Shown piece by piece: positions 2,724 through 9,231 of a stretch of 64,000 bases of DNA. The stretch's first letter is position 1. Every line of letters begins with the position of its first letter. Source of the DNA: a virus. The notes under the pieces are model-generated. The model was not told where the DNA came from, did not search any database, and was given only the letters and a program-made list of their open reading frames with translations. The stretch spans positions 1 through 64,000 of the IMG/VR virus record IMGVR_UViG_3300045825_000202; one strand, given 5' to 3'. The position numbers and the translations under genes were made by a program.

Positions 2724-3071
2724 ATGAAATACTCACACGAGCTGACAACTAGGATTTTGCACTATTACGGCCCTGGGGGTCTTTCGGTGCCTGAAATCGC
2801 TAAGATCCTATCAGACGAATTAGGTGAAACAGTACCAGAACGGTCCCTAATTGCTAAACTTAGTACACTAGGGGTATACGTAAAGAAGCAATATCTTACT
2901 AAACGGGGAGAAATTCCAGTTCGAAAAGAAGAATATCTGCAGAAAATCGCAGATATCTTAGAAATTGACGTAGAAAGTCTAGAAAGCCTCTCAAAAGCTA
3001 ATAAAAACATCTTAATCCTTTTAGCTGGGTTAGTTAAGCCTATTACTAAAGAAATGCTAGAAGCCGAATAA
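2724..3071 (+). CDS. A2-like DNA-binding protein (paralogue of 7095-7472)
   Basis: Shares RS(L/I)IAKLS, YVK..Y.TK.G...V.KE and NK..L..L motifs with 7095-7472. Confidence 0.75.
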   Translation: MKYSHELTTRILHYYGPGGLSVPEIAKILSDELGETVPERSLIAKLSTLGVYVKKQYLTKRGEIPVRKEEYLQKIADILEIDVESLESLSKANKNILILLAGLVKPITKEMLEAE

Positions 3072-4256: not shown

Positions 4257-4357
4257 GTTTCTATAGGTCGCCCTGAGTAAACGCTATTCTGACCCTAGGG
4301 TGCACATATAGATGCTAAAGCATTAACTTGCGTAAATATAGCATAACAGCTAAAACT

Positions 4358-4390
4358 AAAGCCGCTTTGACTATAAATCAAAGCGGCTTT
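4358..4390. terminator. bidirectional intrinsic terminator
   Basis: 13-bp stem AAAGCCGCTTTGA/TCAAAGCGGCTTT. Confidence 0.85.
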
Positions 4391-4867
4391 CTTGCGGAAC
4401 AAACTTTATAGGCTTGCTAGAACTATTAAGAGCGACCTAATAGTTTTTGGTAGTTCACTCACGACTTTCGTAATGAGTATAGCTAGTGAAATCGAACTTC
4501 ACATTCCTGGTGAAAACCAGATACTTGTATTGTACTATAGCTGTATTTTAAAAGACTTCTTTGTCTACTAGTAATCCCTTAGTGAGGACGTTTCTACCTG
4601 TTTCGGGTCAGGAATTAGTACAATGCGCTAATTACGCCCATCAAGTTTAACGTCATTGAGAGAAGACGATAGTAGCTAATACAATTTAACCTATCAAGGG
4701 CACTACTAGACCAAATTTAACCACTGGGTCGCGTGGAATGAGATTAACGTCATCATTTTAGACGTCGAATAGCTAGATTTACTTTCCTTTTAAGCTATAC
4801 TTAACATAGCACTATACCCTTAAACTATCGGTATTGAGGTGGCCGATATCAGTAAAGCTGATATACT

Positions 4868-5005
4868 CCTTTACTATAAGATCAAAACTAGGCGGGTATG
4901 GGAAGACCCGTGCGATTCGGACTAGTCCGAGCAGTTTGCGACTGAGCAATATTACTATTACTCCTTATAGTTTCGGCCTTGTTTAGGTAAGGCCTCATCA
5001 GAAGG
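4868..5005 (-). ncRNA. type I hammerhead ribozyme (HH-B)
   Basis: Minus strand: CCUU-CUGAUGA-GGCCUU(ACCUAAAC)AAGGCC-GAAA-CUAUAAG...CUUAUAG-UA|AAGG; stems I, II and III all pair; predicted cut at 4872/4871. Confidence 0.88.
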
Positions 5006-5007
5006 TA

Positions 5008-5140
5008 ACCTTTACCCTAAGTTGCATAAGTTCGTTAAGTAGGAGAGTACTCAAGCAGAACCAGCTGATGACTATAGGGTTTCGACTATTATTTATGGAT
5101 GAACTAGTTCATCACTATGCGGCAAGTCTCATCAGAAGAT
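5008..5140 (-). ncRNA. type I hammerhead ribozyme (HH-A)
   Basis: Minus strand: AUCUU-CUGAUGA-GACU...AGUC-GAAA-CCCUA...UAGGG-UA|AAGGU; predicted cut at 5013/5012. Confidence 0.82.
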
Positions 5141-5452
5141 TCCGCAGTCACTAGTCACTAGTGACGAAGATGGCCAGTGCTGAGGTTTGTCACTGTTTAA
5201 GGAATTAATTCGCAGCCGGAACTCCTAGCACTGTAGACGTTAGCGCGTTAGCGCAATTCTCTACAACTTAGTGTCCGGTGATATTTAAGCGACCTCATAA
5301 CCACCAAATTAATTAGATTGAGCGCATCGTCAAAACGTTATTACTAAGAATCATCGGTATTGAATCTTATACGCACTTCAAAATACTAGACTAACCTATT
5401 GCCTCCGGGTTACTTAGTGCGTATTGCGGTCGAAGCTAGGGTCTGTCTATCA

Positions 5453-6960: not shown

Positions 6961-7530
6961 CCTATAAGAGAATCAGGGTTTTTGTACAGTTACCCCTCAC
7001 TGCCTACATACTAAAGTCTAATTAGACTTTAGTATGTATCCTGATTACTTTTGATAATCAGGATAGTATTAGTTACTTTTGATAACTAATATTTTTAGCC
7101 TTCTTGGGTAACCTTTGGAGTCAGTGCGGCAATAAGTTTCACCAAAGCCGACTTATTGACATGATCAAAACTGCTTTGTTCCGCCTCACTCATACTGCCC
7201 ACCAGTTTAGCCAAATCATCAATCAAGCCTTCTTTTTTAACGACAGTAGTCCCGGCCTTTGTCTTATATTCTGGTTTAACATAAAGCTGGTCGCCATCTA
7301 CCGACTTCATACGGGACAACTTAGCGATAATAGAGCGGGTAGTCTTACCCAATTCAAGGGCCAACAATTCAACGCTAGATTGTTTTTTATCAGCACCATA
7401 AACAAGGGCCATGCGTGCCGCTTGCTCTTCGGTATAGTTAACGGGCTTTACGGTTTTAGTAGTTGCGTTCATTTTGAAACATCCTATAAGAGAATCAGGG
7501 TTTTTGTACAGTTACCCTTTACTGCCTACA
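6961..7530 (-). repeat. 48-bp direct repeat at 6961-7008 and 7483-7530 (duplicated 5' leaders)
   Basis: 46/48 identical; each copy lies immediately upstream of a start codon. Confidence 0.9.
7095..7472 (-). CDS. A2: T5 A2-like pre-early DNA-binding protein
   Basis: Size, position next to A1 and recalled similarity to T5 A2 (S..AKLS..K.Y.K, helical C-terminus). Confidence 0.75.
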   Translation of the reverse strand: MNATTKTVKPVNYTEEQAARMALVYGADKKQSSVELLALELGKTTRSIIAKLSRMKSVDGDQLYVKPEYKTKAGTTVVKKEGLIDDLAKLVGSMSEAEQSSFDHVNKSALVKLIAALTPKVTQEG

Positions 7531-7614: not shown

Positions 7615-9231
7615 TTAAAGAAAAATAATTTGTCGCTGCCCATTCTGCCAAGTAACGATCGAAGCTAACCGCCACGAACTTGGCCCGATATTATACCCCA
7701 TATCAAGCTCGCAACATCCGGCGGTATAACAGCCGCCTATGATGCTAGGCGAATGAGTGTGGCCTGTGTTCATTTTAACGCCAAGCCCCGCCAGTTGCTG
7801 AGGTGAGCCGCGAGAGCCGTTAGCGCCCGTGTGGCCGTGGCACCCCATCTCAATTCCTGCCAAAATCAATGATTCGTCTGTGCTATGGAAAACGATATTA
7901 TCTTGAATAAGCCCGCCAAATTCACCCACCACATATTCTAGCATATTGAACGGCTCTTTGTACCCAGCATCAATATATTTATATAATTCTAGCATACATT
8001 GAAGATATAAAATAGCATTAGTAGGATCTGCTTTATAATCCTCACTCTTGAGCCATGTATTAATAGCTAGATCGTGGTTAGATTCTATAATGTGCGTCAT
8101 TCGATCATACTCAGCGGATAACTTATATATTACATTAGCTACTTTAATAATATCCTTTTCAACGGTATTGCCTTTAGTATGTTGACCGAACATAAAGGTA
8201 CAATCTTTCACATTATGATGATTCCTACTGCTAAAGTCCATTACATCATGCAAGACAGTATGGTATGGGTTAAATTTCTCCAGATGTTCAACTAACATAT
8301 CTAGGTTATTGCTAGATAATCTTTCTGCGTGAATATCCCCGAACTGTAAAGCAATGGGCCTCTGCCCCGTAATAACTTCATTAGCAGAATAATAGTTACC
8401 CTCGTCATAGAATCCATCACATCCCGGCATAATCTCCAAATGTCTAGCAGTCAGTACCCCATTTTTAACGGATACATACAGTGCACTAATGTTGTGCATA
8501 CTTGCCGCGACAGCACCGGCTTTACGTAATATATAATTACGCCGAGTGATACTACCCGTGCTAAACAACAGTTTCCCTTCACCATTTTTTAGTGCCGCCG
8601 TTGCCTTCAATGTAATTTTACTTGCAGGTATACACACCGACACACCTACAGGTGTAATGCTCTCAAAACCACTTAAAGGACCCTTGGCCGTTGGATTCAC
8701 GTTGGCTTGGCCGATAAAATGTATAACGCCACCTAAACTAATTTGACCCTCTACAATATATTTTACAATGGCAGGATCATAATAAATACCATCAGTAGCA
8801 TCTTGTGCAACCATAAACCCGGCCTTGTTATAGGTCATTTTTGCTACCATAATTATAGCATTATTATGCTCTGCAAAAGTTTCCAATGCACTCAAAGCCA
8901 CCATATCAACATCAGTGTTATTTTGCGCAACCGTTAACACATAGTTTCCCTCAGGATACTCCTGTACGTGTCCAGATGCGCTATCCGTGCCGCTAGACAA
9001 TGGTTTTGCGGCGTCTGACTCGATCTTATCAAAAGCCTTTTTAATTCGGTTTTGTGAGACTTCATGACGACGACTTACTTCAGCCTGCAAGATAACTAAT
9101 ACAGTATATTTATCAGCATTTTCAAATTCTTGTAGTTCAAGCAGTTCACCGAGCAGGACTTCGCGCTTCTCTTCAGACTTTGCACGAAAATAGCCCATAG
9201 TTTGCGCAGTTAAGATAGTTTGCTGTTTCAT
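7615..9231 (-). CDS. A1: T5 A1-like protein (second-step transfer / host DNA degradation), metallophosphoesterase fold
   Basis: 538 aa; AQNNT, GDIH, HD, SNHD, HGH.G.NGSRGS and GHTHS motifs. Confidence 0.85.
   Translation of the reverse strand: MKQQTILTAQTMGYFRAKSEEKREVLLGELLELQEFENADKYTVLVILQAEVSRRHEVSQNRIKKAFDKIESDAAKPLSSGTDSASGHVQEYPEGNYVLTVAQNNTDVDMVALSALETFAEHNNAIIMVAKMTYNKAGFMVAQDATDGIYYDPAIVKYIVEGQISLGGVIHFIGQANVNPTAKGPLSGFESITPVGVSVCIPASKITLKATAALKNGEGKLLFSTGSITRRNYILRKAGAVAASMHNISALYVSVKNGVLTARHLEIMPGCDGFYDEGNYYSANEVITGQRPIALQFGDIHAERLSSNNLDMLVEHLEKFNPYHTVLHDVMDFSSRNHHNVKDCTFMFGQHTKGNTVEKDIIKVANVIYKLSAEYDRMTHIIESNHDLAINTWLKSEDYKADPTNAILYLQCMLELYKYIDAGYKEPFNMLEYVVGEFGGLIQDNIVFHSTDESLILAGIEMGCHGHTGANGSRGSPQQLAGLGVKMNTGHTHSPSIIGGCYTAGCCELDMGYNIGPSSWRLASIVTWQNGQRQIIFL

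Follow-up and report, generated by a model that had tools for sequence, protein, structure and literature searches.

The window analysed here is a stretch of 64,000 nucleotides, positions 1 to 64,000 of the IMG/VR virus record IMGVR_UViG_3300045825_000202, a linear genome of 95,792 bp that is approximately 90% complete. The gene at 7615-9231 (minus strand) encodes an A1 DNA-transfer protein (phrog_1745, E 9e-145), and since the best match of its product among sequenced phages has only about 40% identity, the phage is a distant T5-like one. Just downstream of the A1 and A2 pre-early genes lies a non-coding unit, also on the minus strand, and a pair of hammerhead motifs, referred to below as HH-A and HH-B, is found mid-way along this unit, which has the following landmarks:

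6266-6234, minus strand: strong terminator, which precedes the non-coding unit
5770-5742, 5667-5639 and 5481-5453, minus strand: three sigma-70-like promoters predicted to drive the unit (consensus scan, 10 of 12 matches each)
4390-4358, minus strand: predicted terminator with a 15-bp stem at the end of the unit (terminator scan)
4358-4871, minus strand: downstream non-coding RNA with a predicted 5'-OH after cutting, which holds a domain (4655-4523) conserved with the related phage contig L282 and the terminator at 4390-4358

Transcription of the unit is predicted solely from these consensus scans. Region 5543-5452 aligns to the region of another related contig, L123, that carries a TTGACC-N17-TATAAT promoter upstream of its own hammerhead. 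The promoters are followed by around 1.1-1.4 kb that reach to the 4390-4358 terminator; from 5770 to 4358, the RNA strand has no open reading frame of at least 50 amino acids, and none of at least 60 amino acids covers the hammerhead region on either strand. Protein-coding genes flanked by ribozymes, the mark of clustered phage hammerheads, were looked for and are not found at this locus. The sole RNA-strand frame of at least 20 amino acids in the unit is one of 36 amino acids (4888-4998, minus strand), the AUG of which lies inside the HH-B core; this frame has a stop, so the endless translation of a circle of the 141-nt RNA described below would be impossible, although 141 nt is 3 x 47.

Two A2-like DNA-binding paralogues, at 2724-3071 (plus strand) and 7095-7472 (minus strand), face each other across the non-coding block. 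A facing pair is also present in L123, and L282 has a copy downstream of the RNA unit. A motif, (A/G)CAAC(T/C)TAGGGTCA, is repeated at positions 1257, 2319, 2348, 3179, 3446, 3538, 4290, and 23710 of the window and at L123:13356-13371. It is the reverse complement of TGACCCTAAGTTG, which holds the -35 box of the consensus promoters (TTGACCCTAAGTT...TATAAT) in L123 and L282. The strand of the HH-A cleavage site, GCAACUUAGGGUAA, resembles this promoter-like TGACCCTAAGTTG motif, and the window and L123 have 16 identical bases around the site.

Two hammerhead motifs on the minus strand

An earlier note on this DNA had described two interlocked type I hammerheads, and all of the positions and sequences that it assigned to them are indeed present on the minus strand. 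Their parts are as follows:

5007-5141, minus strand: HH-A, type I hammerhead (sequence, descriptor scan, and three homologues with covarying helices I and II)
5141-5136 with 5012-5007, minus strand: HH-A helix I, 6 pairs
5135-5129, minus strand: HH-A core, CUGAUGA, preceded by AUCUU (sequence)
5128-5125 with 5087-5084, minus strand: HH-A helix II, GACU..AGUC, 4 pairs, with a 37-nt loop
5083-5080, minus strand: HH-A GAAA (sequence)
5080-5075 with 5019-5014, minus strand: HH-A helix III, ACCCUA..UAGGGU, 6 pairs, with a 55-nt insert
5013/5012, minus strand: HH-A predicted cut, UA/AAGGU, at a GUA cleavage triplet
4868-5005, minus strand: HH-B, type I hammerhead in the linear transcript (sequence, descriptor scan, and fold)
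5005-5002 with 4871-4868, minus strand: HH-B helix I, CCUU with AAGG, 4 pairs
5001-4995, minus strand: HH-B core, CUGAUGA (sequence)
4994-4989 with 4980-4975, minus strand: HH-B helix II, GGCCUU/AAGGCC, 6 pairs, G+C-rich, with an 8-nt loop
4974-4971, minus strand: HH-B GAAA (sequence)
4971-4964 with 4880-4873, minus strand: HH-B helix III, ACUAUAAG...CUUAUAGU, 8 pairs and a ninth, G-U, pair (4963/4881), with an 81-83-nt insert
4872/4871, minus strand: HH-B predicted cut, UA/AAGG, at a GUA cleavage triplet

HH-B follows HH-A three bases further on, with CCUU as its first bases. In both motifs, C3, U4, G5, A6, N7, G8, and A9, G12, A13, and A14, the A15.1-U16.1 pair, and H17 (which is A) are all present. 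Both helix III inserts are long, with 55 nt in HH-A and 81-83 nt, folding into three predicted hairpins, in HH-B.

The motifs were sought with a type I descriptor that demands an exact CUGAUGA, at least 4 pairs in helix II, GAAA, at least 5 pairs in helix III, U-H, and at least 4 pairs in helix I. When both strands of the genome (95,792 bp) are scanned, this descriptor finds exactly two sites, which are HH-A (6, 4, and 6 pairs in helices I, II, and III) and HH-B (4, 6, and 9 pairs): two complete hammerheads, in the same orientation and in one predicted transcript. The plus strand of the genome has no hammerhead by the same descriptor, and 300 dinucleotide shuffles of the genome gave zero matches. 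A slightly looser descriptor, applied to the A1 loci L121-L280 (80 viral loci together with 698,982 bases of metagenome loci), gave one match, which is a true homologue.

A search with the hammerhead covariance models had been put forward as a check. At the Rfam gathering score, nothing matches in the whole window, and Hammerhead_1 (RF00163) has no match in the whole genome; the sole Rfam hammerhead match is to Hammerhead_3 (RF00008), at 5020-4965 (minus strand), with 28.7 bits against a gathering score of 48.5. The alignment is made of cut site 1, of AAGG-UUA-CCUU as helix I, and of the core and helix II of HH-B, and its helix III is imperfect (UUAGGGU with ACUAUAA, 6 of 7 pairs). The low score is probably due to the short helix I (4 bp) and to the length of the inserts in helices II and III; it lowers the automatic assignment, not the structural match. 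The same alignment illustrates that, with two cores and two sites, three hammerhead pairings are possible. The word "interlocked" is borne out in this sense: the AAGG that follows cut 1 can pair either with the 5' strand of HH-A or with CCUU, the 5' strand of helix I in HH-B.

Folding energies were compared in the isolated units. The active fold of HH-A is within 0.6 kcal/mol of the minimum-energy fold and that of HH-B is 0.3 kcal/mol above it; the HH-B unit has a z of -2.7, and its minimum-energy fold contains helices II and III. Judged from its sequence and fold, HH-B is probably active.

The helix III insert of HH-A contains UCAUCAG (5071-5065, minus strand), the exact complement of its own CUGAUGA core. 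When a longer 5' flank is included, the HH-A core pairs with UCAUCAG in a predicted inactive fold that is favoured over the active one by 6.8 kcal/mol. L282 and L123 contain partial equivalents of UCAUCAG (CAUCA and UCAGCAG, respectively), and the pairing could be a folding switch or chance.

Relatives of HH-A and the possible origin of HH-B

Relatives were sought at the loci of A1 homologues from viral contigs, metagenomes, and species genomes, and by sequence-pattern scans of viral contigs; the comparison of the relatives' hammerheads leaves out the closest A1 relatives, P0002-P0010 (58-69% identity). Homologues of HH-A were found in three uncultured phages, at L123:13526, L282:159, and L281:6670, and all of them share GAAACCCUA...UAGGGUA/A, where the stroke marks the cut. 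The pairs were tabulated by script, as a MAFFT alignment of the four units misplaced the GAAA of L123. The helix I pairs of the four sequences are UA-UA-CG-UG-AU, UA-CG-UA-UA-CG, UA-CG-UA-CG, and UA-CG-CG-UA-AU; helix II varies over its whole length, and in helix III it is the outer part that covaries. Compensatory changes are found at positions 2-5 of helix I, at positions 2-5 of helix II, and at positions 7-8 of helix III (its extension). In L123 and L282, the active three-way fold is the minimum-energy fold, and in L281 it is within 1 kcal/mol of it. These homologues with their compensatory changes, in addition to the motif itself, make HH-A very probably a genuine and conserved hammerhead.

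L123 and L282 are syntenic with the window, and HH-A is at the same place in the same non-coding transcription unit. L123 has A1 and A2-like genes upstream of the hammerhead, and in both L123 and L282 homologues of the genes for 115 and 335 amino acids (p115 and p335) converge downstream of it. Whereas the ribozyme has been kept in both the window and L123, the flanking RNA can no longer be recognised as similar between the two. Both contigs have a consensus promoter upstream of the ribozyme; in L282, this promoter (TTGACC-N17-TATAAT) is only some 25 nt away, which puts the hammerhead at the very 5' end of the predicted transcript. These arrangements suggest that the conserved job of HH-A would be to cut the leader off a non-coding RNA. 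Moreover, since the three relatives have a homologue of HH-A only, the conserved function would be the single-site 5' processing of a longer non-coding RNA.

Other searches gave little. The A1 loci from metagenomes and species genomes contain no hammerhead, and only a few of them belong to a close A1 relative and also extend sufficiently far downstream to be informative. The single-protein A1 search of the viral contigs yielded no relative, and at the DNA level neither 4600-5400 nor 4340-4700 matched any of 50,697 phage records. A pattern for HH-A with a longer insert matched, in the viral contigs, the contig of L123 and L284, the latter being a chance match within a coding region.

A second element of the unit is also conserved. 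The sequence 4655-4523 (minus strand) aligns to L282:341-480 with 73% identity over 141 columns (blastn, E 2e-20), and a pattern for this 3' domain finds only L282 in the viral contigs. The domain, of around 135 nt, contains long runs identical with L282, for example AAACAGGUAGAAACGU and UUUAAAAUACAGCUAUA. It matched no Rfam family, and its two-sequence consensus fold has five compensated pairs and is weak.

No second hammerhead was found in L123, L282, or L281. The conserved 3' domain lies 63 nt after the cut in L282 and 357 nt after cut 1 in the window, so the window has approximately 290 extra bases, HH-B among them. An HH-B-specific pattern gave 0 matches in the viral contigs. A pattern for two cores in close tandem gave 24 loci there, and all of them were rejected, as each consists of a real first hammerhead, or none, followed by a chance CTGATGAG in coding sequence. 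HH-B is without a homologue in these searches and is therefore known from a single sequence, without covariation among relatives.

The two hammerheads of the window can, however, be compared with each other. Their helix III 3' strands with the cut site, CUUAGGGUAAAGG in HH-A and CUUAUAGUAAAGG in HH-B, are identical at 11 of 13 positions, and the 5' strands (ACCCUA versus ACUAUA) compensate for each of the two differences, so that each site best matches its own core. This pattern looks like an old duplication that has been kept functional. Similarity between the HH-A and HH-B inserts was considered as a sign of recent duplication and discarded, since 384 of 500 shuffles score as well.

The predicted 141-nt RNA and its nearest known systems

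Cutting at both sites would release a small RNA, with these features:

4872-5012, minus strand: predicted excised 141-nt RNA, which follows from the two cut sites
5002-5012, minus strand: AAGG-UUA-CCUU, alternative hairpin form of helix I (Rfam Hammerhead_3 alignment and constrained fold)
4882-4962, minus strand: structured "cargo" insert of HH-B helix III, predicted to form three hairpins (folds)

The RNA starts with AAGG-UUA-CCUU-CUGAUGA and ends with CUUAUAGUA; its predicted ends are a 5'-OH on AAGG... and a 2',3'-cyclic phosphate on ...AGUA, and the complete core of HH-B lies within it together with the structured insert. The hairpin form of helix I makes the excised RNA, or site 1 taken with the core of HH-B, a type III-like hammerhead. 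The claim that the fragment between the cuts can re-form helix I with its own 5' end agrees with the constrained fold of the 141-mer, in which the closed helix I costs 1 kcal/mol (-38.8 versus a minimum of -39.8 kcal/mol). On balance, the sequence favours release of the 141-nt RNA.

No tRNA or tmRNA was found in the window, so the insert is not a tRNA, and its comparison with Rfam gave no credible family, as the matches were at chance level (E 7.7). Complementarity to the 141-mer elsewhere in the phage genome, which would have pointed to antisense targets, did not exceed chance. Within the genome, the unit matches only itself and is therefore single-copy. It is bounded by two hammerhead cut sites, and its ends could meet through the ribozyme helices; neither multi-copy repeats nor, by the type I descriptor, ribozymes in both polarities with RNA replication were found, and the viral contigs are without relatives of the unit.

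Hammerheads are common in phages. Perreault et al. (2011) reported clusters of them in prophage and phage operons, where they are presumed to act in RNA processing (PMC3088659). In the viral contigs, hammerheads of types I and III with GUA or GUC triplets are common, and those in the viral loci examined flank genes or gene blocks at a spacing of 0.5-2.6 kb. The locus studied here resembles these clusters in having several co-oriented hammerheads in one phage transcript. It differs from them in that the spacing is 141 nt rather than the 0.5-2.6 kb of the flanked genes, in that the piece between the cuts is non-coding, in that the second ribozyme lies wholly inside this excised piece, in that both ribozymes have long helix III inserts, and in that the upstream partner, HH-A, is conserved across a clade. 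The literature searched held no link between hammerheads and T5-like phages, no hammerhead-derived circular RNA of a phage, and no report later than the 2011 study of a circular or spliced product.

The nearest mechanistic parallel is with the retrozymes of metazoans, in which tandem type I hammerheads also bound a unit. These non-LTR retrozymes and satellite repeats have units of approximately 150-300 nt that are circularised in vivo, and the 5'-OH and 2',3'-cyclic phosphate ends of the monomer are kept together by the ribozyme helices (review by de la Pena et al. 2020, PMC7761336). Retrozymes are multi-copy repeats with near-identical ribozymes and are thought to be mobile via reverse transcription, whereas the present unit is single-copy, has two different ribozymes, belongs to a DNA phage, and is known from its sequence alone. 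The link to retrozymes and viroid-like agents, which had been drawn at the outset, consequently holds for the mechanism and not beyond it, given a single-copy unit and an opposite strand on which the type I descriptor finds no hammerhead.

The Avsunviroidae and the viroid-like satellite RNAs carry type III hammerheads. A closed form of the 141-nt RNA would be like these in that small loops would cap helices I and II and the rest would be attached through helix III. In contrast to the Avsunviroidae, it is DNA-encoded, has no opposite-polarity ribozyme by the type I descriptor, and gives no sign of RNA-to-RNA replication; to our knowledge, it is far smaller than any viroid. A further possible likeness is to discontinuous or insert-bearing hammerheads such as those of mammalian 3'-UTRs (mouse), which are mentioned in PMC3088659: there too, a conserved core has a very large insert in one helix, but the host, the context, and the helix are different.

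Readings of the hammerhead pair

The reading that we prefer, and hold to be somewhat better than even, is that two genuine hammerheads operate in a dedicated non-coding unit, with HH-A trimming the leader and the HH-B cut freeing the 141-nt RNA, and that their role is to define and protect ends. The transcription, the cleavages, their order, the ends, and any ligation in the following scheme are what we infer. HH-A would fold once approximately position 5007 has been transcribed and would make the first cut after GUA, at 5013/5012, which would remove the triphosphate-bearing leader and leave the downstream RNA with a 5'-OH. HH-B would then cut at 4872/4871, once its 3' strand and AAGG (4871-4868) have been transcribed. 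Two products would result: the compact 141-nt RNA, with the core of HH-B and an insert of around 83 nt, and the conserved downstream RNA with its 5'-OH. These cuts would serve primarily to define and to protect the ends of small phage RNAs. The 4-bp helix I would free the 3' product, after which the fragment's own 5' AAGG could pair with CCUU; this closure would hold the 5'-OH and the cyclic phosphate in the HH-B junction, where some fraction may be rejoined, either by the ribozyme running in reverse or by a host ligase of the RtcB type. A detectable circle is possible on these models and, in our estimation, doubtful.

The preferred reading has consequences of its own. It describes a small hammerhead family in a T5-like clade at the front of a dedicated non-coding RNA, and the position of the HH-A family suggests that a phage regulatory RNA is given its 5'-OH end, not that mRNAs are separated. 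Moreover, the 141-nt unit is minimal and self-contained, so its cleavage and religation can be followed by simple assays. If no circle is made, the locus would be a clean new example of ribozyme-defined RNA ends.

Another possibility is that the two hammerheads exist in order to excise the 141-nt RNA for ligation, which would produce an exonuclease-resistant, functional circle that displays the insert of around 83 nt and has the junction CUUAUAGUA-AAGGUUACCUU. We consider this unlikely. The excised RNA does hold a whole hammerhead, and its own 5' end can close helix I through a loop of 3 nt with a penalty of 1 kcal/mol; Rfam Hammerhead_3 recognises the type III-like topology at site 1; a 4-bp helix I with a triloop is, however, only marginally stable. 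The two helix I duplexes are cross-compatible and 3 nt apart, which is also the expected residue of a tandem duplication: as such compatibility is automatic after a duplication, the geometry alone cannot show purpose. No phage-encoded RtcB was found, but 10 of 14 control genomes have RtcB, which is thus common in prokaryotes. Tandem type I hammerheads of animals, with units of around 150-300 bp, give abundant circular RNAs through enzymatic ligation (PMC7761336), whereas circular or spliced products of the clustered phage hammerheads were sought by Perreault et al. and were not detected (PMC3088659), and the scan of the viral contigs for other close tandems brought up no true case. The proposal that the pair is a designed circle-making device is not supported by the relatives: as only HH-A is kept in all three, a circle is not the conserved function.

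It is improbable that this lytic DNA phage excises a 141-nt RNA with its tandem hammerheads and has it covalently closed, by self-ligation or by host RtcB. If it did, the RNA would be the first circular non-coding RNA of hammerhead origin from a phage genome; the range of hammerhead-made circles, which takes in eukaryotic repeats and viroid-like agents, would come to include DNA phages, and the RNA would be a natural counterpart of the engineered ribozyme-plus-RtcB circular RNA systems, with the insert of around 83 nt as a stable decoy or effector in early infection. In a bolder version, the unit would be a mobile hammerhead RNA that inserted at the HH-A cut site; the 11-nt imperfect direct repeat at its borders, UAGGGUAAAGG and UAUAGUAAAGG, would be explained in this way.

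Less likely still is a single cut per transcript, with HH-B as a redundant, alternative, or decaying copy of HH-A; the 5' end would then be at 5012 or at 4871, the pair would act as a switch or a back-up, and there would be little free 141-mer. Such an exclusive choice could arise because AAGG (5012-5009) and CCUU (5005-5002) are shared by competing helices, which allows three competing pairings, and because the core of HH-B can address site 1 via UUAGGGU/ACUAUAA (6 of 7 pairs); UCAUCAG, in addition, can sequester the HH-A core, and the relatives manage with a single hammerhead. Against this, HH-B has kept all of the core bases, a helix II of 6 bp that is rich in G+C, and a helix III of 8-9 bp, in a fold at or near the energy minimum, and the compensated changes in helix III make the two sites orthogonal rather than redundant.

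The idea that the motifs are due to chance or are features of the other strand, without ribozyme function, has in its favour the sub-threshold Rfam score and the resemblance of the HH-A site strand to the reverse complement of the repeated promoter-like motif TTGACCCTAAGTT, and it is very unlikely in the face of 0 matches in 300 shuffles, two complete motifs 134 nt apart on one strand, three homologues of HH-A with compensatory changes, and a region with no frame of at least 60 amino acids on either strand.

Three smaller observations concern individual hammerheads. The HH-B insert contains a terminator-like hairpin with a weak 5-pair stem, CGGGU-N8-ACCCG, followed by CCUAGUUUUG (4893-4910, minus strand); it directly precedes the 3' strand of helix III, and if it terminated transcription, HH-B could not form. 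L281 has a second GGUUUAGGGUA (L281:6566-6577), which is identical to its helix III 3' strand with the cut site and lies approximately 100 nt upstream of the core; the sequence that follows this second copy cannot form helix I with the L281 core. Lastly, in a by-eye comparison of these few sequences, a complement of 4-5 bp between loop II and the 5' tail, which might provide a tertiary contact between helices I and II like that of fast natural hammerheads, is possible in HH-A (UGCGG/CCGCA), HH-B (AGGU/ACCU), L282, and L123, and not in L281.
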